Virus record (IMG/VR): IMGVR_UViG_3300014666_000034
Coordinates: 1-64,000 of that record
DNA: 64,000 bases
Source of the DNA: an uncultured virus (IMG/VR IMGVR_UViG_3300014666_000034)
Lineage: Duplodnaviria; Heunggongvirae; Uroviricota; Caudoviricetes
Direction: 5' to 3' (one strand)
A program made the position numbers and the translations under genes. Below, piece after piece: positions 4,574 through 62,137 of this stretch; within the stretch, counting starts at the first letter, position 1, and the number at the start of each line of letters is the position of its first letter. The notes beneath the pieces are model-generated. The model saw only the letters and a program-made list of their open reading frames with translations, did not search any database and was not told where the DNA came from.

Positions 4574-7354
4574 TTACTCTAAATTTGAAATTTGATCTTC
4601 TAAAACAGATAGTCTATCATCGAGCCACTTCACAGTTTTGGTTAAAGTCCATGTATCATTTCCCCACCATGAATCCCCAGTTATTCTAATTTCATTTGCG
4701 TAAACGATAGATCCACTAACTGCAAAAACATAATTAGTTATTGTACTTGCACCATTACCATTATAACCACCCCAAAGAGCAAAACGATTAGAAGCTGCTT
4801 GTGCAGACATTCCAGAATATTCATCAATTGACATAAACAACGCGCGATCTGTATATGTCGTGTAAAAATCTCCAAGGTATACCTCATTATCTGCAGCGTA
4901 AAAGAATCTATTATTAATATTGATGCTTCCGCCTACAAAACTAGAACCCCTAATTATGCCTGTTATGTCAGCGTTTGTTGCATACAACTTTCCATTATTT
5001 AACACTCGGTATGGAGCTATAGATTGATTTGCATTTCCGGCCCAAAACGAAATGGCATTATTCGCAGTAGAAGAACTCATTCCAACTCCACCAGAATATA
5101 GATATCCAGATGTTATACTCCATCCACCAATAAAGCCTTCATCAATTTCAGCTCGACCTTTAAATATAAGCTTGTCTTTTACGGCATCAATATATAGCAG
5201 GCTCGTACCACCTTTGGATATATTAAATATCTGACTAGGATTATCCGGATTAATTTGCACCTTGAAACCATTTGTTGCAGAAGCAATAAAACCATTTTCA
5301 TCAAGAGTGAGAGTGTTATTCTTATTCTGTATTTTAAGAGCTTCCCCTATAAATAATCCACCATAGATTACATCTGCAGAAATGCCGTAGTATGATGTTG
5401 TTTTGCCATTATTTGTTACATATACTTTACCTATAGCAAGTTTTGGGTCACGAAGATTAGTTCCATCTGGTTCCTCAAATAATAATATCTGTCTATTGGT
5501 AATCCAAAGTTTTTCAGGAGCATATTTATTTAAGTCAGGTAGCCATTTTTTCAATAAAATACCGGTGCTATCAATAAGCACTTCCTGATTCTTTCCGTTG
5601 CTTTCAATCTGCTGATTACTTAAGTCAAGGAATTCTTTCTGAGTGCTATAAAAGGCTTCATTTGCTTGTTTCGACGCTTGATTCCAACCAGAGGTGTTGT
5701 AACTAAGAGAAGCACTTGTCTTATCTACAAGTTTCTGCATGGCGACGAAATCAAACCAACCGCCTGTTATGCTTGACTTTGAGCTGAATGTAAGCTTGAA
5801 TTTACTAAAATCTTCCCAATCAATTTCCATTTTAAGAAGTCTAGCTTTTATAAATTCTTCATCAGAATATTTTATTGCAAGAATGTCTCCTAGATCAAGT
5901 TGCTCTGTCCATACTTTATATTTAAACAGTACTGGAAAGTTTATAGAATTAACTTCCATATCAAATTGAGGGTAGCATACCTTATTCAGTTCATCAATGC
6001 CATGTTTATACAAATCCTGTTTCATTTCCAATATATCAGATTCAGTCATAATTGGAGTGGCGATATAGGAGTTGTCGCATAAATTATCTTCTCTGACAAA
6101 TGGTTGTAATTCCCGATACAATTCTTCGCCAAGTACATCATCAATTCTAACTACATAAGAAAGCACTTCGGTTTGCTTTGCTTTGATCTGATTTTCTTTA
6201 GCTGTTATCTGTGACTGTCTGACTGCGATTTCATTATTAACAGCATTCCAAAGAGTGTTGTAATTATTGTATTGTGTCTGTGCCACCGGATCTGCATTTT
6301 TTATATCAGTCAACACAGACATTTGTTCCTTGTATGTATTTGCCTTTGCTTTTAATCCAACAAGACCATATTGCTTCCAATCTGTACTTGACTCATCAGA
6401 TGGCATTTTATTATATAAACTATCCAATCCATCTTGTAAAGTCTTTAACTGTGATAGAGCAATGGTAATTAAACCTTTATTATTATCCATTAGCCGATAA
6501 TATTCTTCCAGCTTTTCTTTTAAAGCCTTACTCATATCATTATAGAAATAGCTGAAATTACTTACATAATTATTACCAGCAGGATTTACAGAAGCAATAG
6601 ACAGAGCAGTACCGCTTGCATCATTGCCACCAGTAACATTTAAAACAGTTTTAATATCATTTTCATTCCAAGTAATATTTAGTTCCTTAATGAGATTCAT
6701 GAACGATAGGGCGATAGGAACTTCTTTCCCAATGTTTTCAGCTTTATATGCACTTACACTTCGGTCATTACTGTCGAACACAAAGATACATTCAAACGTA
6801 TCTGATACATCGCCAGTAAGAAAGTCATATGACGTGACACTATCGTTGTCAAAGCTACGACGATTCTTTGATATCTCCGGGTCAATAAACTTGAATTTCC
6901 AACCAGGATTTTTGTCCATAAAAATGTGAGCAATGCTATGTGTAACATCGTTGGCATCATATAAGGAGTATCGATCAAGCCCGCCTTGTTCATCATCTTC
7001 GGTTCCCATAGAACCAAATGATGTAAGATATGTTTGTTTTAGCTCGTAAGTCAAATCATAACAAGTTATTTCGAGATAAGGGTTAGACCCACTGTCTTTG
7101 CGACTAATATCTGTAATCCTATACCATCCGATATCCTCTAGCCATATGTATTTACCAACAGAGATCTCGTCAAATCCATAATTCTCAATTTTTTCATGAT
7201 ATTTATAAATGGAGAATTTAAACTGCGAGACACCCACTATATATAATACGGAACCTTTACTCTTGGCATTAAGCTGACATATTAACTTTTTATTTGGATA
7301 TGCCAAGAAGACTCTTGGAATTACAGGTTTTCTGTAAGCATCAAATTTAACCAT
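4574..7354 (-). CDS. Baseplate hub / Tal-like (prophage tail endopeptidase family) protein
   Basis: 926 aa, follows Dit; LDLGDILAIK and C-terminal GFIGGWSIT beta-rich segments typical of siphophage Tal. Confidence 0.75.
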   Translation of the reverse strand: MVKFDAYRKPVIPRVFLAYPNKKLICQLNAKSKGSVLYIVGVSQFKFSIYKYHEKIENYGFDEISVGKYIWLEDIGWYRITDISRKDSGSNPYLEITCYDLTYELKQTYLTSFGSMGTEDDEQGGLDRYSLYDANDVTHSIAHIFMDKNPGWKFKFIDPEISKNRRSFDNDSVTSYDFLTGDVSDTFECIFVFDSNDRSVSAYKAENIGKEVPIALSFMNLIKELNITWNENDIKTVLNVTGGNDASGTALSIASVNPAGNNYVSNFSYFYNDMSKALKEKLEEYYRLMDNNKGLITIALSQLKTLQDGLDSLYNKMPSDESSTDWKQYGLVGLKAKANTYKEQMSVLTDIKNADPVAQTQYNNYNTLWNAVNNEIAVRQSQITAKENQIKAKQTEVLSYVVRIDDVLGEELYRELQPFVREDNLCDNSYIATPIMTESDILEMKQDLYKHGIDELNKVCYPQFDMEVNSINFPVLFKYKVWTEQLDLGDILAIKYSDEEFIKARLLKMEIDWEDFSKFKLTFSSKSSITGGWFDFVAMQKLVDKTSASLSYNTSGWNQASKQANEAFYSTQKEFLDLSNQQIESNGKNQEVLIDSTGILLKKWLPDLNKYAPEKLWITNRQILLFEEPDGTNLRDPKLAIGKVYVTNNGKTTSYYGISADVIYGGLFIGEALKIQNKNNTLTLDENGFIASATNGFKVQINPDNPSQIFNISKGGTSLLYIDAVKDKLIFKGRAEIDEGFIGGWSITSGYLYSGGVGMSSSTANNAISFWAGNANQSIAPYRVLNNGKLYATNADITGIIRGSSFVGGSININNRFFYAADNEVYLGDFYTTYTDRALFMSIDEYSGMSAQAASNRFALWGGYNGNGASTITNYVFAVSGSIVYANEIRITGDSWWGNDTWTLTKTVKWLDDRLSVLEDQISNLE

Positions 7355-8245: not shown

Positions 8246-11200
8246 TTAATGTTGTTTTGACATTTCCATCATTTTCTGAGGTATTTCCTTGTTAATGAAA
8301 GTATCTAGTCTTTCATTCATTTGAGTTAATACTTCTTTATCTGCGTTACCCTGTACTACAAGTAGTGGGCTATCGATATTCATAGAAACGTTGTTTCGAT
8401 TAGCCATAGCCATTGCCCTATAATCATACTTCGGCATATTAGCCAACACAAACTTACTTGGATCAATAGCAAAATCCCATAGCTTATCAGTCATATTCTT
8501 TGTAAAGATGGTATCGCCACCTACTGAATTGAGAACAGTACCATTTTTAGCAACAATCAATTCTGGCCCATCTTCGTTAACATATTTTAATCCTGGCTTA
8601 GAATTAGTAGTGCCACTTTTATATCCAACAGTGATATTTCTCTTTTTCACATCATCATAGGATATTGTTTTTCCGTCCCATACACCACTGTCATCAATAT
8701 AATAATACCCGTTGCCGTCTTTCGCTTTGATAGCCATGTCTGTAGCCATAGTACCATCAGATTTCAGATAGTAGTCTTTACCATCTTTAGACTTTCTCCA
8801 TGCAGATTTAACCATCTGACCATTCTCAGGCTCAAAATACCGCCAATCACCATTGCTATCGTCCCAACCAGTTTTCATATAGCCATCTTCGTTGAAGCTA
8901 TACTGCTTACCTCCAATGGTGTAGATTCCATCAGAAGCGTAATCATCATTAGAAGCTCCGTACCACCAGCCCCTAGAGTTCTTTTGCCACGTTCCGGAAC
9001 CGGTAATATCCTCAAATGAAGCCGAATTATTTCCATCTGCGGAGAATCCTTGTATTGTACTCACTAATTCTGTAAGCTTTGACAAATCAATATTAGCAAT
9101 GTCAATATTAATCTGTGAGATAGCTTCTGACACAGCGTCTTTAAATGTAGACACGGCGCTATTAGCTGACTCCCATGGAGAAGTTAGTTCGCTAGTCATG
9201 GTAACATTATAATCGGTTCCATACTTAGTCAGGGTATTGTAGACTGTTTTGTAGTTATCTTTTACCTGTCCGAGATATTCTTCTATTACCTTCTTCTGTG
9301 CATCAGTATTTGACTTAAGTTCATCAAGCTCTTTTTTCTTTGCGTCCTGATAGTCCTCTTCCTGCTTATCTAGGCTTTCAATAGTTTTATCATAAGCATA
9401 GTCAGCTTGTGTCTTAGCCAAATCTTTCTTTGCATCTGATAGCTGCTGTTCTAACTGTAATCTCTGTGCAATATCTTTCCTATCGGTAGACAGTGACAGT
9501 TCATCAATCTTTGCCTGTAAATTATTAATGTCAGTCTGTTTCTCGCTAATACTTTCAAGATAATCCTGATAGTCCTTTTCAGTCTGCAATGCTTTCTTCT
9601 TGGCAGCAATTAAATTATTCATATCATCTATCTGTGCCTGGATTGCATTATATCTAAACTGCAAGATAGCTTGTTCGGCTTCTTTCGTAGCTTTTACTGC
9701 TGATAATTGAGCGTTGGTATATTCATTGAGTTTTTCGTTATACTCGGCCTGTGTGAGAGAACCATTTTCATACATCTCATTAATAGCATTAATGGCTTCT
9801 TCGTAATCGGCCGCTTGTTGTTTAGCATTAGCATACTGTTGTCCTAATAGTGCAATTTTAGCAAGACCCTTAGATGTAAGCATTCCTCCGTCTAAAAGTC
9901 CATCGTCGCCAATTAGATCAGACATGGTGTTGATTCCATTGTTAATTCTATCGAGTGCACTAGAAATCCTCTCTAGCTCCTCAAATGGCAAGTTGATTAG
10001 TGCTTTTCTGAAATCGTTCATTGAAGAAACAGCATCATTCATAGAGGAATTTACAGCAATTAATTCCTCGTTGTATTTACGCCATTCATTTGAACCCACC
10101 TCAATTGTTCCTTTACTTACCGCTTTAGATAATTCATTGGATAGCGAATTATACTTACTATGCAACTGCTTATAAATTGCTTCCTGTTGATTAATTAACC
10201 GTTCATAATCTGTATTGGTAATAGATTCGCCCAATTCCTTTTGTAGATTTAAAAGATTATTACTATATGAAGCGTACTTATCCATTAACGAAACAAGACT
10301 ATCAAAATCATTGATAATATTTTCAAGTTTGGTCTGAGCAAGTTCTTTCAAAGTCTTTTTTGTTTCATCTATCTTCTTGCGAACATCTTCAGCTTTGTTA
10401 TACCATTCTTGATAACCTTTGATATTGTTTGCAATTACTTCATCAGTAACAGTTTCAATTTCAAGAGTGCCATTTTTGATTTTGTCTATGTAAGTGGGAG
10501 AGAGGTTGTAAGAATCTGCCTTCTTCTGGTATGTATCTAACTGAGACTGTAAGGCAGTTATTTTATTTGCCATTTCATCAATAGCTGTATCTGTAAGAGT
10601 GTTTTTAGGCTTCCAGTTTGATGTATCAGAAATTTTACTCTGGATGTCTTGGATCTTTTCGTCTACTCGTTTAATTGTAGTTTCTACCCAGTCAAATACT
10701 TCTGAGAAATCTTTTTTATCCTTTTTAGAGCCAGATGGTTTATTTGTTTTTGTACCAACTGTATACGATGCATTAACATTTGCTCCCTTGCCTTTATATT
10801 CGGAAGCAGATTTTATTGCGTCTTCGGCTTCCTTTTCTGCATTTCTTACAAGAGCTTCATAACCTTCTTTTCCGCCTATGTTGCCGCCAACACTACCTCC
10901 GACCTTTAAAGTATTTAAAGCTTTGAGTGCCGTATTAGCAGTTCCAATTACTCCAACAAGAGAGATAATATTCTCAATGTCACCACTAGTATCCAGTGCA
11001 TTTCCATTGAAAAATTCCTTCTCTAATACCAGTCCGGCCAGTGCAACTTTGGCTATGTCACTTTGAGTTGCTTCATCAATAATTCCTGGTATCTCACTAG
11101 CCGTAGCATTGGCAAGATCATTACTTACTTCTGCCGTATAAGCTTTTTCAGCGGCCAAATGCTCCTGTGCAATCGCTAATCGTGACATTACAACTTCTTC

Positions 11201-13078
11201 CGCATTAGCAACACCCATATTTTGAAGCATAGCAGTAGCAAGATTGGTATTTTCGTCTGTAAGTCCATTTAATACGCCAGAACTATCAATCCACGTTGTT
11301 ACGAGATCATTAAATGCAGATTTTGTAACATTTATATCTTTTGGTGAGGACGAAACCTTTTCAACGAAGTCAGTATAGGATTCTCCCAAGTCTTTAAAAT
11401 TATCTTTGAACTTTTTGTCATCTAGTAGAGCATAGTCAAACGGATTATCTTTGTCGGATATGCTCTTCATAATTTTATCTAAAGATTCAAAACCATCAGA
11501 TAGTGAGTTGATATTTGAGATTACGTCTTGTTTGGAAAGAGGAGAGAATGCGGCTTCACCAGACTTGGAGATATCATCTTGAACGTATTTCAATCTGGTC
11601 AGTTCATCAATGACCTGGTTAATGCTTAATCCATATTTGTCGGTTGATTCAACAATTTTATCAAAATTATCATCTTTTCCATCATTAGCCATGGATAGTA
11701 CATCTGTCTTTGTTAAACCTTTTAGGCTTTTAGCATAGTCTTTGATATTATCGTTGTTTGAAGAGAGTGCGTCTCTGAAATCGTAAAGTCCTGTGTTTGC
11801 GTGATCGAAAATATCATTCATTACATTTCCGTATCGTTTCCAATTGTCACTTGTTAAATCAATGGAATTTTTAACTTCATTGAGGTCATCTCTTGCTGAT
11901 AATATTTTAGATTCGTCACCAGAAATTAGTGCATCATTATATGCCTTCACGGCATTTGTAGCCTTATTATAACCTTCTGACAATTCGTTATCAGTGGCAA
12001 TTTGTGCTTTAAGTGCCTCATTATATTGATCTTGTGAATCGTCTAGTATTTTTTTGTTATTTTTTAAAGCATTAGTAGAATTATCGAGGAAACTAGTAAC
12101 AAAATTATTATCTTTGAATTTCTTATCAAGTTCTTGTATTTCGGTCGCTAAATCATGTATTATTTTATCAGCATTTTCAGCGTCACCCTTAAACTCAATA
12201 GTATAACCATTTATATCACCATTTGTAAAAGGATTAAGCTTTATACCCTGGTCTTGATACTTTGAAGCAATATCATAAATTTCTTGAGAATAATCATTCC
12301 TTAAATCACCAGTACTACCAAGAGAATATGTACGAGTTCTTTCCATTTCCTTCGTAGCGTTATCGATACCATTTCTGTTTTCAAGAAGATAATTCTGTGC
12401 CGCCACCTTATTTCTTGCTAATATAGCATCAGTCTGATCTTTGTAAGCATCAGTTACGAGATTTAATCGTCCATATTCATCACCATATTTTTCATTTAAT
12501 TCTTCTTGAAGTATTAGTAATTCATTCTTGATCTCGTGCTGACGCTCTTCTGTAGTATTGGCCTTTGTGAGTTCATCATGTAATTTCTTATACTTTTCCG
12601 CATAATCATTAATAGAAGAGGTAGTTTCTTTAAAAATATTTGCTGCATCAGCGGTGGCCTGACGTGTTTCTTCAATTGAACGTTTGTACATACTCCAACC
12701 AGCCACGCCAGCAGTAACGGCCATACCAACAAACAAAAGCGGATTCGCTATCATTGTCGACCAAAGACCTTTTAATGCTGTTGTGAAACCAGTGGTTGAT
12801 AAAGTGGCACTTTTCTGGGTTGTTGAAAGGGAAGTGGTGGAGATTGCTGTTTCAAGCTCTGCCTGAGACAGTCCTTTTACTGAACTAGATACTCCATTAA
12901 TATTGGTAGACCACACAGTACCGGCCTTAATGGCTTCCAACTGTGCCTTATTTAATTTCTCACTTGAAAGTATACATTTTTGCATACTAAGTTCTAGCGA
13001 ATTAAAGTATTCTGCAATATTATTACTATTTCTTAAACCAGTTAATGAATTTGAAAGATTTCCGAGGTCTTTAAGTTG
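8246..13078 (-). CDS. Tape measure protein, exon 2 (C-terminal 1610 aa; includes cell-wall-binding repeats)
   Basis: Long coiled-coil ORF before Dit; no RBS before its TTG; starts CAACTTAAA, complementary to the intron guide sequence. Confidence 0.85.
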   Translation of the reverse strand, partial: QLKDLGNLSNSLTGLRNSNNIAEYFNSLELSMQKCILSSEKLNKAQLEAIKAGTVWSTNINGVSSSVKGLSQAELETAISTTSLSTTQKSATLSTTGFTTALKGLWSTMIANPLLFVGMAVTAGVAGWSMYKRSIEETRQATADAANIFKETTSSINDYAEKYKKLHDELTKANTTEERQHEIKNELLILQEELNEKYGDEYGRLNLVTDAYKDQTDAILARNKVAAQNYLLENRNGIDNATKEMERTRTYSLGSTGDLRNDYSQEIYDIASKYQDQGIKLNPFTNGDINGYTIEFKGDAENADKIIHDLATEIQELDKKFKDNNFVTSFLDNSTNALKNNKKILDDSQDQYNEALKAQIATDNELSEGYNKATNAVKAYNDALISGDESKILSARDDLNEVKNSIDLTSDNWKRYGNVMNDIFDHANTGLYDFRDALSSNNDNIKDYAKSLKGLTKTDVLSMANDGKDDNFDKIVESTDKYGLSINQVIDELTRLKYVQDDISKSGEAAFSPLSKQDVISNINSLSDGFESLDKIMKSISDKDNPFDYALLDDKKFKDNFKDLGESYTDFVEKVSSSPKDINVTKSAFNDLVTTWIDSSGVLNGLTDENTNLATAMLQNMGVANAEEVVMSRLAIAQEHLAAEKAYTAEVSNDLANATASEIPGIIDEATQSDIAKVALAGLVLEKEFFNGNALDTSGDIENIISLVGVIGTANTALKALNTLKVGGSVGGNIGGKEGYEALVRNAEKEAEDAIKSASEYKGKGANVNASYTVGTKTNKPSGSKKDKKDFSEVFDWVETTIKRVDEKIQDIQSKISDTSNWKPKNTLTDTAIDEMANKITALQSQLDTYQKKADSYNLSPTYIDKIKNGTLEIETVTDEVIANNIKGYQEWYNKAEDVRKKIDETKKTLKELAQTKLENIINDFDSLVSLMDKYASYSNNLLNLQKELGESITNTDYERLINQQEAIYKQLHSKYNSLSNELSKAVSKGTIEVGSNEWRKYNEELIAVNSSMNDAVSSMNDFRKALINLPFEELERISSALDRINNGINTMSDLIGDDGLLDGGMLTSKGLAKIALLGQQYANAKQQAADYEEAINAINEMYENGSLTQAEYNEKLNEYTNAQLSAVKATKEAEQAILQFRYNAIQAQIDDMNNLIAAKKKALQTEKDYQDYLESISEKQTDINNLQAKIDELSLSTDRKDIAQRLQLEQQLSDAKKDLAKTQADYAYDKTIESLDKQEEDYQDAKKKELDELKSNTDAQKKVIEEYLGQVKDNYKTVYNTLTKYGTDYNVTMTSELTSPWESANSAVSTFKDAVSEAISQINIDIANIDLSKLTELVSTIQGFSADGNNSASFEDITGSGTWQKNSRGWWYGASNDDYASDGIYTIGGKQYSFNEDGYMKTGWDDSNGDWRYFEPENGQMVKSAWRKSKDGKDYYLKSDGTMATDMAIKAKDGNGYYYIDDSGVWDGKTISYDDVKKRNITVGYKSGTTNSKPGLKYVNEDGPELIVAKNGTVLNSVGGDTIFTKNMTDKLWDFAIDPSKFVLANMPKYDYRAMAMANRNNVSMNIDSPLLVVQGNADKEVLTQMNERLDTFINKEIPQKMMEMSKQH

Positions 13079-13103
13079 CAATATTTGGTAAAAATAGTAT
13101 AAT
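13076..13103 (+). promoter_or_regulatory. sigma-A promoter for the cargo lipoprotein, overlapping the 3' splice site
   Basis: TTGCAA (13076-81)-16 nt-TATAAT (13098-103). Confidence 0.55.
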
Positions 13104-13139
13104 AATTTTAATAGAATATAAATAAGGGAGAGTTATTTT

Positions 13140-13664
13140 ATGAAAAACTCAATTATTAAAATCTTTTCAATACTTATTGTATTAGGAGTAGTTATTAGTG
13201 GTTGCTCAAAAGAGTCCGAATATCATATTAAGCCGCCAAAGAACACAGACTTTAATTCTGCTAGTGTTACCGATTTGAATGATTCTGATATTGAGCTTAT
13301 AAAAGAGTGTATACCTAAGGTGGTAAAATGGTATAACTCAATAGATATTACAAAACCTCAACCTATTGATTTTGTAGCAGAAGAGGTAAGGGCTCCTGGT
13401 AATACTTTATTTAAAAACGAAATATATCAAACCTACCTAAATAACTTTACTTCGGGTATTAAACAAACAGATGAGGAAAAAGTAACCTTTAATCAAATCA
13501 ATATGATTAATGCTGTTTATGGGCAAATAGCTGAAATAATGATGACAAACGAAATTAACTATACGTTAGTAGGTGAAGGAGAAAACACAATAACGATTAA
13601 TAAGGATAGCTGGGCAAAATTAGGTGACAAAATTAAAGAGGCTATTGACTTTTATTATAATTAA
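13140..13664 (+). CDS. Lipoprotein of unknown function (intron cargo)
   Basis: MKNSIIKIFSILIVLGVVISG-C lipobox; GGGAG RBS. Confidence 0.8.
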   Translation: MKNSIIKIFSILIVLGVVISGCSKESEYHIKPPKNTDFNSASVTDLNDSDIELIKECIPKVVKWYNSIDITKPQPIDFVAEEVRAPGNTLFKNEIYQTYLNNFTSGIKQTDEEKVTFNQINMINAVYGQIAEIMMTNEINYTLVGEGENTITINKDSWAKLGDKIKEAIDFYYN

Positions 13665-13680
13665 TCATTTATAATAAACT

Positions 13681-13717
13681 AAAAAGGATCTCTGGAATTT
13701 AATGGAGGTTCTTTTTA
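13681..13717. terminator. Possibly bidirectional terminator
   Basis: AAAAAGGATCTCT...GGAGGTTCTTTTT imperfect hairpin. Confidence 0.5.
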
Positions 13718-13813
13718 TTATAGGTTACGAATAAACGTTCCGTCTGTTTTTTTAGTAACTTTTGGTATATAATAATACCATCATTTAGTAGTGTGGGGGG
13801 GGGTATTATTTTT

Positions 13814-14902
13814 ATGTTTCCTGATGAGATAAAGCAGATTCTTAATAAATATCAAAAATACAATGAAGGTAGTATTCAAAATATAAATAAAAATATTAAT
13901 ATTATAATTACCGAATTCAAAATCATTAACGCGAACTTAGCTAATGAACTTAAAAAGCTTGTCATAGATGAAAATACAAATAACAATGCAGAAGAACTTT
14001 TAAAGGATTCAATTGCATTGCGAGATTATATAAATTCTATTACCTCACTAGAATTTGATGACACTACAAAAATATTGGATGAATCAATACCTGTTTTTGA
14101 TAAGAAGGTATTTCCGTATCTTATCTCCGATGATTTATGCCCGTTTTGTAATGTTAAGTTGGTTCCACATATAATTTATTATCAAAGGAATCTTAATAAT
14201 CAATTAGTAAATGATGAAATTGAATGGAATAAATGCCCTAACTGTAAAAGATTATTTGTCTTAGACTACGATGCTGAAGGTTTTAACTTCAATAATACAA
14301 ACATAACATTAAACAAGGATAAGTATGACGAAATTCCGCTAATAGACATTTATAGTGTGATTGTATTAAGTAACACACTCAAGTGCTCATCAAATCACCG
14401 ATCAAAAGACTTGGTAGCAAAAATTCCTGTATTAAATGAAAGTGGTCAAATTATATACATAAAAATAAGCGCATCGTATTGCTTCGACTGTGAACGTTTT
14501 ACGATTCTCAAAGATGAATTTAATGCAATAAAAGATGTGGTTATGTGTAAGGTAATTGATGAAACAACCGAGGGACAAAGTAATAATTGCGATATGGAAA
14601 TGGGACAAAAGCAATCCATTCTTTATAACTATGGTTATAATGTTCAGACAAAGAAAAACTTATCAGGCCAACAGCGGCGTATTATTTTATCTTCTGTGAT
14701 AGAAGCAAACATAATGAATAGAAGAGATGTAATAAATCATATTAGCACTCTTATCGAAAGAGGCAGTAAAATATCATCTTGGAAAGATGCCACTCAAAAA
14801 TGGAAGACTGATAGGAAATTTGTGACTGAATATCAAAAGGATTGCTTACCGGAGGTTATTTTTAATAACATCATTTTAAAATACAGAAAATCTACAAAAT
14901 AA
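13814..14902 (+). CDS. Hypothetical protein with multiple CxxC Zn-binding motifs (intron cargo)
   Basis: CPFC, CPNC and CFDC motifs; upstream TATAAT. Confidence 0.75.
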   Translation: MFPDEIKQILNKYQKYNEGSIQNINKNINIIITEFKIINANLANELKKLVIDENTNNNAEELLKDSIALRDYINSITSLEFDDTTKILDESIPVFDKKVFPYLISDDLCPFCNVKLVPHIIYYQRNLNNQLVNDEIEWNKCPNCKRLFVLDYDAEGFNFNNTNITLNKDKYDEIPLIDIYSVIVLSNTLKCSSNHRSKDLVAKIPVLNESGQIIYIKISASYCFDCERFTILKDEFNAIKDVVMCKVIDETTEGQSNNCDMEMGQKQSILYNYGYNVQTKKNLSGQQRRIILSSVIEANIMNRRDVINHISTLIERGSKISSWKDATQKWKTDRKFVTEYQKDCLPEVIFNNIILKYRKSTK

Positions 14903-15109
14903 TATGATTTGAAACAGCACGGTAACAATAGAAGCAGGAGGACATTAGTAACAGTAATCTACCAAATTTCCTTATTGTAATTCGACTAATGTTAAAAAGG
15001 TTACGTACTTGTCTAAACCTGGTAGTGTGGTATTGGAGTATAATTACTGCTGATAATTTAGCATGGTAATAGTTGTAAGACTGATTTTTAGCGAATGGAG
15101 ACATAAACT

Positions 15110-15706
15110 ATGATATTATGTTGTACTACCTGTGGGAACAGTTTTAATTCAGATATAGATAATAATAAGTGCGACTATTGCGGTAATGAAACAGTTGTTT
15201 TAATTACTGACGAAGAACTAAAATCAATTCCAAAAAGTGAAATAGCCCTTCTTTCTAATACTCTAAAAGAAAAATACAAAAGCAATCCTAAATATAACTC
15301 TGATGTATGGGAGGCCAGAGTATCAAGAGACAATTATATAATTACTAAAGAACAAAATATAAATTTAAATAATAACATTTCAAACCACAAATTAACTACT
15401 GGATTTGATTTCGACGGTTATAAGATTACAAAATACATAGCGGTTATAAGTGGAAACGTAGTTTTGGGTACTGGTTTATTCAGTGAATTTGTTGGCTCGA
15501 TTAGTGATGTTTTAGGTACGACATCTACTCCTTTTGAAAACAAAATGGAGAAAGCAAAAGAAATTGCAATCGAAAAATTAATTATAAAATCAGCAACTAT
15601 TGGTGGAAACGCTATTATAGGTGTGGATTTTGATTTCTTTACTTTAAGCAATAATATGATCGCTGTTTCAGCGAACGGAACATCTGTCGTAATAGAAGAA
15701 GAGTGA
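15110..15706 (+). CDS. YbjQ/UPF0145-family protein with N-terminal Zn ribbon (intron cargo)
   Basis: CTTC/CDYC, then TTGFDFDGYKITKY...GGNAIIGVDFD...VSANGTSV. Confidence 0.85.
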   Translation: MILCCTTCGNSFNSDIDNNKCDYCGNETVVLITDEELKSIPKSEIALLSNTLKEKYKSNPKYNSDVWEARVSRDNYIITKEQNINLNNNISNHKLTTGFDFDGYKITKYIAVISGNVVLGTGLFSEFVGSISDVLGTTSTPFENKMEKAKEIAIEKLIIKSATIGGNAIIGVDFDFFTLSNNMIAVSANGTSVVIEEE

Positions 15707-15736
15707 ATCTTGATTGAAGCTAGTAAATCGCAAATG

Positions 15737-15803
15737 AAAATGGGGGTATCGTAGGATACTCCTTTTTTTGTACACAAAAAGAGCCAGTCAAATGACTGAC
15801 TCT
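15737..15803. terminator. Two adjacent terminator hairpins between convergent cargo units
   Basis: GGGGTATC-gtag-GATACTCC-TTTTTT (+) and AAAAA-GAGCCAGTCA-aa-TGACTGACTC (-). Confidence 0.65.
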
Positions 15804-15909
15804 AAATTAAATTGGAGTTATATATATAAAAATATTTAATTGTAAATCATGGTATATTTTTGATAATTTCGAATATAATGAGTAATTTGCATATAAAAAC
15901 TAAGCATAG

Positions 15910-16010
15910 AAAAAGGACTAGAATTAACTAGTCCCTTTCAACATATCGTGATAAAACATATCGTAACAAAACATATCGTATCAAAACTTATCTTAACAAA
16001 ATCATATCGT
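15910..16010 (-). ncRNA. Putative ~100-nt small RNA made of five 15-nt tandem repeats
   Basis: Promoter TTGACA(16045-40)-17-TATCAT(16022-17); ACGAUAUG-core repeats; terminator GGACUAG/CUAGUCC-UUUUU; no RBS or usable ORF. Confidence 0.6.
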
Positions 16011-16013
16011 GAA
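15940..16013 (+). repeat. Tandem repeat AACATATCGTRWYAA x5 (periods 15,15,15,16)
   Basis: CATATCGT cores at 15942, 15957, 15972, 15987 (degenerate CTTATCTT) and 16003. Confidence 0.9.
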
Positions 16014-16063
16014 CTTATGATATCATTTATTGTATTATATGTCAAGTGATTTTTTTTGTTACT

Positions 16064-16852
16064 TTATTCTGGTGCAGATATAGAAATTGCTCTACCTTCG
16101 CCCCTTTTTATTAAAGCTCCCCTCTCCAGCATTATATTTATAATTTCTGACGCATATACTTCGGATACATTACATTTCTTAACAATCTCATCTTTTGCCC
16201 ATGTAAATCCAAGAGTTTTACCATTACCTCTATTAGTAGTATGCCATTCAGACAACGCTGTTTTCACTTGTTCAAACCAATATTCCGGATTTCCCTTATC
16301 GTCATCAATATTAAATAATTTTAAGATGTCGCAAGAAAAGTCGCAATATGACTCAAAGTGGGTTGTTTGAGATGTATTTTGACTCGTGAAATATAAATGG
16401 ACTTGTTTTCCTTTATATTTTAATCTACTCATTATTGGTATCATATCACTATCAGATGTCACGATTGAATATGTATCTATATTAGGATCCTTATATGTGG
16501 ATTCAATTGCGTCTATACTCAGTTCGATATCGGATGCATTTTTTCTATATTTATCATCTCTGTTATTACCATATACATTTCTTATTTGGACTCTTTGTTC
16601 TTGTAGTTTTCTGAGACTTACTTTTACCTGTTCGAAATCAGCGTATGCTCTAAACGATCTGATTTTATCTCTACCATATAAGTTATTAAAATACTCACAT
16701 ATATTATATTCATCATCCGTAACATCTATAGCATATCTTTTCATTGTATAATACAAATTGTCATAATCAATTAATATGCAAACATTATTGGTACTCTCAA
16801 CTGCATCTTGAACCTCCCTATTCACTTCTTCATTTAAGCTCATTCCACCCAT
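16064..16852 (-). CDS. NYN-domain (LabA/DUF88, PIN-like) ribonuclease with C-terminal helical domain (intron cargo)
   Basis: ILIDYDN, RAYADF, KNASDIELSIDA and IVTSDSDMIP motifs. Confidence 0.88.
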   Translation of the reverse strand: MGGMSLNEEVNREVQDAVESTNNVCILIDYDNLYYTMKRYAIDVTDDEYNICEYFNNLYGRDKIRSFRAYADFEQVKVSLRKLQEQRVQIRNVYGNNRDDKYRKNASDIELSIDAIESTYKDPNIDTYSIVTSDSDMIPIMSRLKYKGKQVHLYFTSQNTSQTTHFESYCDFSCDILKLFNIDDDKGNPEYWFEQVKTALSEWHTTNRGNGKTLGFTWAKDEIVKKCNVSEVYASEIINIMLERGALIKRGEGRAISISAPE

Positions 16853-17494
16853 AATAATTCTCCTAACGTATAATTATTTACCATAAATTACCATATAGTT
16901 ATTATACGACTAAGATTGATATATTTCTACAAGAACGTAGGTTCTTATTAGGGTGATATTTACATCTAAATACTGTAAATATATAACTATGTTTTTACAT
17001 TTATTTGAATCAAATATATAAATATCCAACGCTCTGTGAAGTGTTGATATCGTGTACACTTTGGAACATGCATTAACAGCACAATAAAATATGGCTTTCA
17101 TGTACTGTGAGGAGTGGTGCTCTCTGAACACTCCCTATCATTAATGATCTTATCCCGACATTGCTTGCGCAATTGTTACCATCGGATTATATATCATGAC
17201 TAAACGTAGATAGGGCTAGCTGCTTCATTGGTGATTGTACATCTGTCGGGAATTATTTTTTATCCCTAGAAATCTCACTACGGTGTGTAAACCGTTTGAC
17301 TTATTTACCTTATTTTTCGGTTTCTTCAAAATAGAAGAGTAGTGAGTATTACACTTTTAAGCAATTAATCCTCTTTTTATTTTAAAACTTTCGTCTCTAG
17401 GAATTGTAAATACCGCCATTATGGTATTTCCTTCCCCTAGATAGGCCAACTTAAATCCCTCGGAAATTTAAGCGTAACTCTTGTTTCAGAGTTA

Positions 17495-19057
17495 ACCGTA
17501 GTTTTTTATAAATGCGGCTATACCAGCACCAGATAGTGTAGTAGATAAAATACCAAAACCATTTATTGTCTTATCTAATACATTATTAAACGTCGTACCA
17601 GAATCTATAAGAAACTTTAAGAAATTTGAATTTAGTATAGTCTGTGATAGTGATTGGAACGAAGCTTCATACTGTTGTGTTTTCGCATCAATTGACTGAA
17701 TCCACTTGCTCTGTTCTTCATAAGCTGATCCGGAAGAATTTATAGATGCATCAAGAGCCTTTTGCACTTGCCCAGATTGGAATGACTGAATTAGTGCCGC
17801 AACGCTGTTGCCGCGTTGTTTTCCTGCTATGACCTCAAGAAGGTCGGCCTGGTCAGTTTGGGAAATTTTCGACCATACTTCAGATATTCCCTTTAGAATC
17901 TCGTATGTAGACTTGAAATTGCCTTTGTTATCAAAAATATTTACTGTTCCACCAGTGCGGTTTAAAATCTGAGTTTGTATTTTTGAGATGGATTCTACAT
18001 TGTCATACTCTTCTCCGAGTGCTTCCAGCTCGCCTTTCATGCCTCGTATTCTCATGCTTAATATTTTTAGCGCATTACCCATTTCTGAGGCGTTCTGAAT
18101 TATTTCCGTACCACCGGTTAGCATAGCAAGAGTCTGATTAATATCGTTTCCAGCAAGACGAAGAGAAGAGGCTGAATTTTTAAGTCCTTCTCCCAGAGAA
18201 GCAGCATCAGTGGCAAATTCATTACCAAGTTTGTTAAGTGAATCGACAATTGTTATACTCTTTGTACTTTCGATATTAAACGCCTTCATTGCTGTTACTA
18301 AATCAGAAACAGCAGTTTTATCATCGACTTCCCCTACGTTTGAGTAAATCGATGATACTTTAGCCATGTTGGCGCTTTCATCTATTGTGAATCCAAGTTT
18401 TTTCCAGGTCGCTGTCTGCTCAATAAGACTGGATACTGTTCTACCGAGTTTTTGAGCTTCTACATTTGAACTTTGAAGAATCTGTCTATATTTTGAACCC
18501 GTTTCATCGGATACTTTATAGAGATTGGTTAAGGCTGTATTTATCTCGATCACAGAATCCTTCATTTTACGTAATCCACTAATGGCAGCCATAATTCCAC
18601 CAGAAGGAAGTAACCATGAAGCAAATTTACTTGCGTCTGCCTTAAACGAATCACCCCAGGTCTTACCAAGCAAGTTCATATCTCTGGATGCAATTTTGAT
18701 CTTATTGAAGCTGGCATCTAAACCCTTAAATTCAGACAGTGAAAGATTAGCCTTTCCCATTTTGGTGATGATGTCCTGGATCTGATCACCAAACATCTTC
18801 ATGGCTTTGGTATTGTTGTCAGCCCAAGTTTTAACTGTATTGATTTTTGATAACTGCCTAGATTCAGATACAATCTTTCCAATTGCTGAAGCCGTATCAT
18901 TTAAGTCCTTTTTTGCCTTCTTAGCTTCAGAAGTACCGACTTTTATTTCCGTTTTTAAATTGGCGTCTTTTTGTAATTCCTTTAAAATGCTATTTAATTC
19001 ACTTCTCGCTTTTGCTTTATCGAATATAAGCTCAACGAGAGTTCTAAAATCAGCCAT
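17495..19057 (-). CDS. Tape measure protein, exon 1 (TP901-family TMP domain, 521 aa)
   Basis: INTALTNLYKVSD...IVDSLNKLGNEFA...GNALKILSMRIRG; ends ...KNYG at the predicted 5' splice site (GGU|UAA). Confidence 0.88.
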
Positions 19058-25672: not shown

Positions 25673-26734
25673 CTAAAATCCTTCAACTAAAGTAATCAGA
25701 ACTTTCGCCACATGATTACTACCAATGGTCACACTCAATAAAAATGACTCGTCAATCAGCGAGTCATCGACTACCTTTAATTTGATTGTTTTACCGCTTA
25801 CTGACCGAATTATCTTATCATCAAAATCACTGGCCACATTCCACTTGAACTCTACATCATTAACGATATTCCTATCTTCATCGGTGAATATTACTGTATA
25901 AGTTCTTTCAAATCCAACCTTTAAGCTGGCATTTCCGCTAATCGTAGCAGATAAATTCGCTGTTTCATTGGGTAGAGTTGGGTCTGTAGGATCTGGATCG
26001 GGTGGGGTAGTGGTTGACGGAACATAACTAGCTATCCATACACTCGTACCATCTCCGAGAGTGACACGTTTATCATACTCTTTGTTGAAGGCATCATATG
26101 AGAGCGTAATAATCATATTACTTCCACGTCCAAAATACTGATTATTATTAAGATTGACCTTACGATTGGTTAATTTATAAACATCTGGTTGCTCTGAATC
26201 ATCTAAGTCAATGGGGAAGCGCATGTCTCTTTTAAGTTGCTTGGTTTCTTCATCAATCGGAAGAGTAAGTCCATACTGATTATCGCCAATAGAGATTGTA
26301 TTATTGGCAGCGACTCCAGAAGTGTATCTCGTAAAATCCTCAGAATAAGCCCAACGTTCAACAATTTCATCTTTTGAATTTTGCCACCTCAACGGTACGG
26401 TGCATAAATACATATACCCAGAATGATATGCTTTTTCATCTGGATCAATTAAAGTCACTAGCCAGTGTTGATTATTCCACTCAATATAGTCTCCTAGATT
26501 AAACGGGGCAGAGTGCTTGGCTTTGATTTTTTTCTTAAAGGTATTTCCTTCTGTATCTCTAGTAATAATCAATTCATACGGTAATCCATTTCTACTAACT
26601 ACATGATAATCAATTGTGTCTGCAAAACGCTCATCGACTTGTTTATTAAGTAAATATAGATCTGTTTCTTGTCTACTAGAAGACTTATAAGTGTTGTTTA
26701 TTTTTTGAAAATACGTAATATCCATAAGCATCAC
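25673..26734 (-). CDS. Putative head closure/neck protein with C-terminal Ig-like domain
   Basis: FNLGDYIEWNNQHWLV; Pro-rich linker and beta-rich C-terminus; synteny. Confidence 0.55.
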   Translation of the reverse strand: MMLMDITYFQKINNTYKSSSRQETDLYLLNKQVDERFADTIDYHVVSRNGLPYELIITRDTEGNTFKKKIKAKHSAPFNLGDYIEWNNQHWLVTLIDPDEKAYHSGYMYLCTVPLRWQNSKDEIVERWAYSEDFTRYTSGVAANNTISIGDNQYGLTLPIDEETKQLKRDMRFPIDLDDSEQPDVYKLTNRKVNLNNNQYFGRGSNMIITLSYDAFNKEYDKRVTLGDGTSVWIASYVPSTTTPPDPDPTDPTLPNETANLSATISGNASLKVGFERTYTVIFTDEDRNIVNDVEFKWNVASDFDDKIIRSVSGKTIKLKVVDDSLIDESFLLSVTIGSNHVAKVLITLVEGF

Positions 26735-38535: not shown

Positions 38536-38609
38536 TACGAGTGAAAGGAATCGAACCTTTGGCGTTAACGGATATAAGCCGTATCCCATCACCACTTGGG
38601 TACACTCGC
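38536..38609 (-). tRNA. tRNA-Ile(UAU)
   Basis: GCGAGTG/CACTCGT acceptor; anticodon loop CTTATAT; GGTTCGATTCC T arm. Confidence 0.75.
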
Positions 38610-43953: not shown

Positions 43954-44028
43954 TAGGTGTAGGTAGATTTGAACTATCGGCACACGGCTTATAAAGCCGC
44001 CGCTCTAACCAGACTGAGCTATACACCT
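43954..44028 (-). tRNA. tRNA-Ile(UAU)
   Basis: AGGTGTA/TACACCT acceptor, TAGCTCAGTCTGGTTAGAGC D arm, anticodon loop TTTATAA, GTTCAAAT T loop. Confidence 0.85.
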
Positions 44029-62028: not shown

Positions 62029-62137
62029 ATAATTAGCAGAGTGGAGCAGCCTATAAGGGCTGCTTTAATGCACTTGACACAAGTCAAGCGGTCACAAGTC
62101 CGCAAGCATTAATACATATAAAATGGAGGAATAGAAA

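Follow-up and report, generated by a model that had tools for sequence, protein, structure and literature searches.

A predicted group I intron with a variable cargo bay in the tape measure gene of a temperate phage

A tape measure gene in two pieces

In a provirus of an uncultured virus (IMG/VR record IMGVR_UViG_3300014666_000034; Caudoviricetes), the tape measure protein (TMP) gene is interrupted by DNA that appears to be a group I intron carrying several unrelated genes. Our window, meaning the whole 64-kb stretch that was analyzed, is the first part of a provirus record of 121,547 bases, and the element that hosts the putative intron is a ~120-kb temperate phage, distant kin of SPbeta. The gene lies on the minus strand as two open reading frames (ORFs), which we refer to as exons.

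17495-19057, minus strand: TMP exon 1, 521 codons; an ORF with a match to Pfam PhageMin_Tail (minor-tail/TMP) at 6e-22
8246-13078, minus strand: TMP exon 2, 1,610 codons; an ORF whose first nine bases, CAACUUAAA, are 13078-13070

Including its stop, the first ORF (521 aa) spans 17492-19057, and the UAA at 17494-17492 is built from the first bases of the interruption. The second, as called, has 1,611 aa (8246-13081) and begins 4.4 kb downstream, which leaves a gap of 4,416 nt (13079-17494) between the two. On PHROG 4211, a TMP profile of length 2,625, exon 1 matches positions 579-942 and exon 2 positions 958-1674; the two ORFs are therefore successive pieces of one TMP. The next gene downstream encodes a minor tail protein. 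An original prediction, made from the letters of the sequence, had proposed a group I intron here, and every coordinate and pairing of it that we checked is present in the sequence. It had also proposed an in-frame product of 2,131 aa, and joining GGU (17497-95) to CAA (13078-76) does give one (521 + 1,610 codons). We read 13079-17494 on the minus strand, with a probability of about 0.85, as a group I intron of the TMP gene that is functional and self-splicing and contains a variable cargo bay. This reading draws on the RNA structure and its covariation, the colinearity of the exons, an intronless relative and the diversity of the cargo.

Relatives were collected from genome, viral and metagenome collections by a protein search with exon 1 together with a 23-nt pattern from the RNA core, yielding 47 loci, many of them duplicate contigs. 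Among them, L002 is on the chromosome of Lacrimispora sp. HJ-01, the closest cultured candidate for a lysogen with this intron. An nhmmer profile found the core in every pattern-bearing locus, always directly after the codon that matches exon 1 residue 520/521, and did not find it in L001, L003, L006, L009 and L011-L015. Among these core-less loci, the TMP of L006 is a single open frame of 2,229 codons that runs across the predicted junction, where it reads FVENFQDLKSAG. Its residues ...GAFVENF-QDLKSAG... align with ...AAFIKNYG-QLKDLG... of the spliced window product, and over a longer span GAIGLGAFVENF QDLKSAGTAV aligns with GAGIAAFIKNYG QLKDLGNLSN from the two exons. This continuous frame therefore places the junction to within one codon. 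GenBank phages gave no match to 12600-17900 by megablast and none to the core by blastn; by tblastn, the first 400 aa of exon 2 had no match among them, and exon 1 matched only distant TMPs at <60% identity.

Ribozyme core and splice sites

The structured RNA forms a block of the first ~465 nt after exon 1, with P1 to P9 taking up ~465-500 nt. Its elements, all on the minus strand, are the following.

17444-17497: P1 region; GGU of the exon (17497-95) is matched by GCC of the guide (17446-44), the pair at the splice site being a U.G wobble
17494-17475: hairpin P1a, with 1 compensatory pair
17472-66 / 17456-50: hairpin P1b, which contains the P10 part of the guide
17386-17441: P2 (17441-17396) and a small P2.1 hairpin with a GAAA loop (17395-17386); 7 of 12 P2 pairs change on both sides
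17063-17373: catalytic core overall, P3 to P8
17373-69 / 17113-09: P3, GAGGA/UCCUC, long-range, from RNAalifold
17364-59 / 17225-20: P4, UUGCUU/AAGCAG, from RNAalifold
17346-17274: extended P5 region, with an extra hairpin at 17266-48, from RNAalifold
17215-17133: P6 domain (CCCUAUC/GAUAGGG), with a GCAA-loop hairpin inside it at 17173-60, from RNAalifold
17132-25: J6/7
17124-18 / 17068-63: P7, GAGAGCA (A17123 bulged)/UGUUCC, a pseudoknot added by hand; its inner strands are GAGCA (17122-18) and UGUUC (17068-64)
17108-17076: P8, ACAGUACA/UGUGCUGU, from RNAalifold
17075-69: J8/7
17030-17062: P9-like hairpin region, from alignments; conservation with relatives stops at ~17035
13079: terminal intron G (omega-G), with the 3' splice site between 13079 and 13078

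This arrangement has the topology of group I introns: P3 encloses P4-P6, a P7 pseudoknot spans P3', and P8 occupies the interval from P3' to P7'. P8 follows directly after P3', and the P7.1/P7.2 hairpins are therefore missing. Covariation was measured in an alignment of 11 sequences from about four lineages. Unaided, RNAalifold recovered P2, P2.1, P3, P4, the extended P5, the large P6 domain and P8, with compensatory changes at 31 of 91 pairs. Once P1 and the P7 pseudoknot are included, pairing holds in 97.2% of 1,029 alignment cells. In controls with the 3' partners displaced by 1-3 columns, the figure is 36.4-43.5%. Changes on both sides are seen at 33 pairs, against 2-7 in these slid controls. 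On four of five covariation measures none of 500 shuffles reached the observed value; the fifth, which counts further pair types, did not rise above the shuffles (439/500). The varying pairs are spread over P1 (1), P1a (1), P2 (7), P3 (1), P4 (1), the P6 domain (11), P7 (1) and P8 (5), with none in P5. At the outer P7 pair (434-495), 4 of the 11 sequences have G-C and 7 have A-U, beside a bulged A or C, a layout of pair and bulge that we take to be the guanosine-binding site arrangement of studied group I introns. An alternative P5 pairing, GUGUA/UGUAC, noticed by eye, was not adopted because its register varies between clades.

Folding energy and sequence conservation single out the same block. 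Positions 17030-17504 fold at -114.9 kcal/mol, compared with -93.9 ± 5.6 for shuffled sequences (z = -3.72), and the native fold beat all 100 shuffles. Together with the compensatory changes in relatives, this upholds the group I core that had been proposed from the window by itself. In all five relatives of clades A and C, the core is 88.0-94.3% identical to that of the window, against 68.2-86.8% for exon 1 and 68.2-94.7% for exon 2, the sole exception to the higher identity of the core being exon 2 of L043, which is above its core. The comparison with L002 gives 92.4% for the core, 74.3% for exon 1 and 72.7% for exon 2; that with L026 gives 89.6%, 68.3% and 68.3%.

The splice sites can be followed through the same alignment. 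Exon 1 ends AAC UAC GGU at 17495, then UAA, and in all 11 sequences its last base is a U that faces a G of the guide. Position -2 of P1 is likewise paired with the guide in every sequence, as G-C in 3, A-U in 6 and C-G in 2, corresponding to the codons GGU, GAU and GCU. The P1 region takes up the same three-way junction fold throughout the 11 sequences. In it, CUUAAAU, an internal stretch resembling the start of exon 2, is the P1b partner of the P10 part of the guide; we read P1b as the usual upper part of P1, which would later be displaced by exon 2. The guide as a whole, UUUAAGUUGGCC, is at 17455-17444, and its P10 part, UUUAAGUUG, is at 17455-47. The predicted P10 pairings with exon 2 are as follows.

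Window, L002 and L005: guide UUUAAGUUG with exon 2 CAACUUAAA, 9/9 pairs
L007 and L017: guide UUUAAGGUG with exon 2 CAUCUUAAA, 9/9 pairs, one of them G.U
L010: guide AGAUG with exon 2 CAUUU, 5 pairs
L028: guide UUUAAUUG with exon 2 CAAUUAAA, 8/8 pairs

These partners lie 1.1-5.7 kb apart, and the guide and the exon 2 start change jointly. In each of the 13 distinct loci with both splice sites located, the base before exon 2 is a G. In the window, GCAACTTAAA (G + CAACTTAAA) occurs twice in 64 kb where 0.33 copies are expected. One copy falls precisely on the first codon of exon 2; the second, at 26231-26240, upstream of the gene, is irrelevant here.

Several points weigh against the intron reading, and we gather them here. 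The original prediction had named the lack of any group I model match as a refutation, and RF00028 gave no match: it was silent at the gathering score on the window and at E≤10 on 5 kb of the region and the 531-nt core, at the gathering score on eight loci of relatives and at E≤1 on four whole records. The same model scored three SPbeta introns at 92.4, 41.8 and 36.9 bits. Other Rfam matches in the intron region were at chance level only (PyrG leader, snoRNAs and others; E 0.19-9.3). The core is also atypical, with ~55 nt, including a co-varying hairpin, between P5' and P4', a J6/7 of 8 nt, a P7-P3' spacing of 4 nt and only three exon bases in P1. Eleven related sequences from about four lineages provide few independent covariation events; the covariation of P3 and of P7 each rests on one varying pair, and P5 is invariant. 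P10 is imperfect in some loci: L023, L016 and L010 each have a single mismatch, L029 has two, and L025/L026 have a bulge. An ATG or TTG at the exon 2 start leaves separate translation of exon 2 possible in 8 of 13 loci. Inside the intron, terminator-like hairpins on the sense strand (15803-15780; another at ~15935, by eye) would need read-through, and L007 has a sense-strand terminator-like site after its sense cargo gene; L002 has none on that strand. Finally, RNA contigs from two runs cover no exon, core or junction.

We judge the missing RF00028 match to be a failure of sensitivity on a divergent core that is still a real count against the reading, and we do not take it as a refutation because the comparative evidence is direct. 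Compared by eye with the RF00028 consensus, the core has AAUUGCUUAAAA against AAUUGCGGgAAA, GCAGC in both, and GUUCAGAGAGCA against GUUCAaAGACUA. The stretches in common are AAUUGC on the 5' side of P4, GCAGC on its 3' side and GUUCA.AGA at J6/7-P7. In an unscored comparison of the P, Q, R and S blocks, also by eye, the S block agrees at only ~6 of 12 positions. The P7 strands are shifted jointly, being GAGCA/UGUUC here and GACUA/UAGUC in the consensus.

The start of exon 2 also bears on whether the ribozyme is a relic. In that case there would be no splicing, a 521-aa protein and a 1,611-aa protein (from the TTG at 13081) would be made separately as a two-piece tape measure, and the conserved RNA would be kept for another use, such as mRNA stability or regulation of the cargo. 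The codon ending in the terminal G is TTG in three loci and ATG in five, as separate translation would ask, and the sense-strand terminator-like hairpins favor separate transcripts; the silence of RF00028 and the contigs without junction coverage point the same way. However, that codon is ACG in four loci and AGG in one, so that 5 of the 13 have no start codon for exon 2. The original prediction had called the exon 2 ORF devoid of a ribosome-binding site (RBS), and this extends to relatives: by eye, no GGAGG-like site is present within 20 nt upstream of exon 2 in any of the 13 loci, whereas most of the neighboring cargo genes have one. The pairing of P3, P4, P6, P7 and P8 has been preserved by compensatory changes, and the guide co-varies with both the end of exon 1 and an exon 2 start 1-5.7 kb off, which makes sense only if the pairings are still used. 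We thus regard a relic as highly unlikely.

Cargo of the intron and its variation among relatives

Between the RNA core and the terminal G, the window intron holds genes and putative signals in both orientations.

16064-16852, minus strand (sense): cargo gene 1, a 262-aa NYN-domain protein, with an RBS; Pfam NYN 4e-22, PHROG 21480 3e-55
15110-15706, plus strand (antisense): gene for a 198-aa zinc ribbon and YbjQ protein, with an RBS and profile matches
13793-14902, plus strand (antisense): gene for a 369-aa Cys-rich protein of no known family, with an RBS
13140-13664, plus strand (antisense): 174-aa lipoprotein-like gene, with an RBS
13140-15706, plus strand: antisense unit of the 174-aa, 369-aa and 198-aa genes
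13076-13103, plus strand: promoter-like site of the antisense unit, TTGCAA-16-TATAAT, whose first hexamer overlaps the 3' splice site
15742-15763, plus strand: terminator-like hairpin ending the plus-strand unit
15742-16045, no strand assigned: intergenic block between the convergent units
15803-15780, minus strand (sense): terminator-like hairpin
16045-16017, minus strand: best promoter-like site of the region, TTGACA-17-TATCAT with TG, 11/12
16929-16901, minus strand: promoter-like site for the NYN gene
13144-13115, minus strand: weak promoter-like site just upstream of exon 2

The cargo thus consists of two convergent units, the sense NYN gene facing the three-gene antisense unit. The four genes, three of them antisense, are as originally predicted, and so is the lack of an endonuclease of a homing family: LAGLIDADG, GIY-YIG, HNH, His-Cys and PD-(D/E)xK domains were not found in the four window proteins with Pfam (E≤0.01), PHROGs or NCBIfam. 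The sense ORF does have a nuclease fold, that of NYN, which to our knowledge is not known as a homing enzyme. PADLOC had no match for three of the four cargo proteins and gave the NYN protein a weak match to HEC-09 (2.5e-4). A similarity search with the 369-aa protein returned only unnamed clusters (0.89-0.90).

The cargo genes had further been credited with their own promoters and terminators. Single sites do stand where they would be expected, and the antisense genes must have promoters of their own. The TTGCAA-16-TATAAT site is 37 nt ahead of the lipoprotein gene, and its ATTATAC is common to the window, L002 and L005. Overall, promoter-like sites show no enrichment relative to shuffled sequences: there are 33 in the window against 28.4 ± 5.7, 20 in L002 against 24.4 and 33 in L007 against 32.2. 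We therefore offer the promoter-like and terminator-like sites as placements, not proof, resting on gene orientation, RBSs and single consensus matches. Downstream of the site at 16045-16017, four ACGATATG repeats are followed by a hairpin and T run at ~15935-15905 (by eye), and 15905-16045 on the minus strand may be a small RNA gene of ~100 nt within the cargo. Nine consecutive G (13793-13801, plus strand) form the RBS of the 369-aa gene, whose likely ATG lies ~10 nt further on. A DNA contig of run X1 is three letters short at 13795, inside this G tract, which may be a length-variable switch.

Of 22 listed sequencing runs, two of them RNA, 20 contained part of the stretch and none contained half of it; contigs of runs X19, X20, X1 and X3 were compared. 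Metatranscriptome contigs of a relative at 90-95% identity cover only 13224-13656, 14300-14915 and 15299-15594, all of them parts of the three antisense genes. Such contigs, which show neither strand nor freedom from DNA, fit expression of the cargo from the prophage. The DNA contig of run X1 joins 15702 to 17037, just past the core, and represents a version of the cargo that lacks the block with the NYN gene.

The placement of these signals bears on whether the two exons are spliced in trans. Terminators and head-on antisense transcription would then break the precursor, and its halves would meet through P10 and the terminal G. The sense-strand terminator-like hairpins that follow sense cargo genes in the window and L007 would suit such an arrangement, as would the presence of the entire ribozyme in the 5' piece, an unusually long P10 (8-9 pairs in several lineages) and the weak minus-strand promoter-like site at 13144-13115, just upstream of exon 2. 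A conserved docking sequence or pairing beside the 3' splice site was not found, though, and the last 40 nt differ between clades; the L002 intron has no terminator-like site on the sense strand, so that read-through is at least possible, and promoter-like sites are not above chance. Trans-splicing of this kind appears distinctly unlikely to us.

As the original prediction had anticipated, the same site holds different cargo in other genomes. At this one site the intron comes in at least 14 length classes, the shortest 1,124 and the longest 5,702 nt, and their gene sets are largely different.

L023, L032 and L045: 1,124 nt
L028: ~1,558 nt
L029: ~1,712 nt
L025: 1,796 nt
L004: ~3,084 nt
L005: 3,498 nt
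L002: 3,857 nt
L026: 4,238 nt
L043: 4,406 nt
Window: 4,416 nt
L031/L017: 4,684/4,686 nt
L016: 5,453 nt
L010: 5,493 nt
L007: 5,702 nt

In L039, L044 and L041, a stretch of 4.7-7.4 kb did not extend to the 3' site; overall, the intron measures from 1.1 to >7 kb. Foreign DNA per intron ranges from 0.6 to >6 kb, and the unrelated genes in it, most of them antisense, number from one to at least six. Conservation among the introns ends at ~17035 on the core side and, at the opposite end, no more than ~60 nt from the 3' splice site. The window and L002 have the genes for the 369-aa and YbjQ proteins in common and differ in their outer genes, and the cargo is therefore a mosaic. Most loci have a small antisense zinc-ribbon ORF that abuts the 3' splice site. 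By its domain matches, the cargo often looks defense-like, with NYN, GmrSD/NsnA-like, Kiwa-like, MazF-like and other proteins, as the following loci illustrate.

L007: DUF262/GmrSD-N protein (PADLOC NsnA, 1e-28) and an S24-HTH repressor
L010 and L039: KwaA-like (2e-15) and KwaB-like ORFs and a P63C protein
L025 and L044: MazF/PemK-like proteins
L044: HD-domain protein with a weak dGTPase match
L026: PBECR3 nuclease, Bro-N/ANT antirepressor, HTH protein and two skipping-rope RNAs

The skipping-rope RNAs of L026 (RF02924) are in tandem at 6089-6168 and 6197-6275 on the minus strand, with 59.8 and 77.2 bits, and they lie on the sense strand just downstream of the PBECR3 nuclease gene.

A block so variable in content that interrupts an essential gene could also be an island that a recombinase cuts out of the DNA on induction, 4.4 kb long here, as phage-regulatory-switch elements are. 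Contigs do show cargo variants, such as the 15702-17037 joint in run X1. Against excision, Pfam found no integrase, recombinase, transposase or classical homing endonuclease in the four cargo ORFs of the window and 49 cargo ORFs of relatives, direct repeats were not found at the two borders, and no DNA contig joins 17495 to 13078, which is weak evidence because it comes from contigs only. Excision would also leave the conserved, co-varying RNA structure and the covariation of guide and exons unexplained. We give this explanation next to no credence.

The TMP genes of relatives have other interruptions. Five places in exon 1 carry further insertions of 1.3-2.1 kb, each with a sense ORF of 247-478 aa.

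L004, 9374-11457: TMP exon 1 insertion
L010, 6096-8001: TMP exon 1 insertion
L016, 8822-10110: TMP exon 1 insertion
L025, 1868-3457: TMP exon 1 insertion
L028, 4794-6103: TMP exon 1 insertion

Two of the five ORFs have DUF4379 treble-clef and DUF2726 or CapR domains, and RF00028 scores the L010 insertion at 49.3 bits, just below its cut-off of 50. From their sequences, these insertions look like classical endonuclease-bearing group I introns. With such extra insertions, one of them scored by RF00028, the TMP gene is therefore intron-prone. L001, whose exon 1 is 87% identical to that of the window, is core-less and yet has a split TMP (11540-14843) in which the TMP middle is replaced. Its gap consists of ~3 kb of different sequence with three antisense ORFs of 183-211 aa, and it may be a second, unrelated intron with cargo. 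In L015 (9374-16601), also core-less, exon-1-like and exon-2-like matches are 7.2 kb apart.

Near the C-terminus of the window TMP, exon 2 residues ~1293-1486 (8600-9200, minus strand) match choline-binding repeats and endolysin PHROGs, and this points to a tape measure module for binding or degrading the cell wall. Elsewhere in the same provirus, there is a type-P5 twister ribozyme (RF02684, 52.9 bits, cut-off 37.6) at 62035-62103 on the plus strand, and there are two tRNA genes, at 38536-38609 and 43954-44028, both on the minus strand.

Proposed mechanism and relation to known introns

From these observations we infer a splicing chemistry, a timing of expression and a manner of cargo exchange. 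The whole ribozyme would be at the 5' end of the intron, with the remaining ~3.9 kb up to the terminal G serving as the cargo bay. Late transcription would traverse exon 1, intron and exon 2. In the transcript, GGU of exon 1 and GCC of the guide would form P1 with its U.G wobble at the cleavage site, while P1b occupied the rest of the guide (UUUAAGUUG) with the internal look-alike of exon 2. An external guanosine would cleave at U17495, the first nine bases of exon 2 would oust P1b to form P10, and G13079 would enter the G-site at P7, so that the exons would be ligated into one mRNA for a 2,131-aa TMP. Because the cargo has its own signals and mostly antisense genes, the prophage could express it at times when the tail gene is silent. 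Genes could be gained, lost and swapped without harm to the TMP because the intron would be removed from the mRNA, and exchange probably proceeds by recombination between the conserved core and exon 2.

A more elaborate version would combine several of these features: a dedicated safe harbor for swapping defense and lysogenic-conversion cassettes, with an antisense promoter built into the 3' splice junction and with exons trans-spliced through the long P10 where the cargo has sense terminators. We consider this combination unlikely. If it were true, the trans-spliced TMP exons would represent the first case of natural bimolecular splicing by a group I intron in a phage.

Phage group I introns are usually regarded as small and selfish, bearing at most a homing endonuclease of their own, and the one here looks different. 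Morons and prophage defense hotspots consist of self-contained accessory genes, including defense-like ones, that have their own signals, sit between conserved phage genes and vary among relatives. The hotspots known to us lie between genes, whereas the site described here interrupts the reading frame of an essential virion gene and would be harmless only through RNA splicing.

An intron in a TMP gene is not new, and a multi-gene cargo bay after P9 is unusual. Group I introns are documented in prophage TMP genes of the Bacillus cereus group as TMP-IVS1/2/3 (PMC2504315). By that account they resemble the intron here in being self-splicing group I introns of a temperate-phage TMP with site-adapted P1/P10, in some of them being without a complete homing endonuclease and in occupying several sites per gene, as in our relatives. 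They differ in being assigned to IA1/IA2 and in carrying at most a homing-endonuclease ORF (PMC2504315), whereas the intron here has no P7.1/P7.2, is not recognized by RF00028 and holds one to at least six unrelated, mostly antisense genes. The P7.1/P7.2 hairpins are described for IA1/IA2 phage introns and for IStrons in PMC2504315 and PMC4227781.

IStrons have a complete 5' ribozyme and foreign genes before the 3' splice site, and splicing makes their insertion harmless (PMC4227781). They are described there with IA2 features (P7.1, P7.2, P9.0-9.2) and with cargo that is always their own tnpA/tnpB, of the IS200/IS605 or IS607 type, through which the element moves (PMC4227781). Here, in contrast, Pfam found no transposase in the 4 + 49 ORFs, the cargo varies by locus and the site is fixed in one gene. 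The ND5-717 intron of hexacorals is likewise a many-kb group I intron that houses several unrelated genes (PMC6545197). It is organellar, with core mitochondrial genes in the P8 loop (PMC6545197), whereas the genes here come after P9, are accessory and vary between close relatives. A full-text literature search found no phage group I intron described with several unrelated, mostly antisense genes after P9 that have signals of their own and differ between close relatives.

Taken as an intron, the element is a hotspot for accessory and defense-like genes inside an essential gene, and it seems a safe storage site for them. Its repertoire includes NYN, GmrSD/NsnA-like, KwaA/KwaB-like, MazF-like and HD/dGTPase-like proteins, a PBECR3 nuclease, repressor/antirepressor pairs and lipoproteins. 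Automatic annotation overlooks the site, calling two TMP fragments and a set of 'hypothetical' genes. If splicing is confirmed, the intron would add a group I ribozyme lineage missed by the standard Rfam model, and it would be a natural test of how a 3' splice site is found from several kb off, across antisense transcription and internal terminators. It would also represent a new way for a phage to carry accessory and anti-phage genes without a larger intergenic space or risk to its essential genes.

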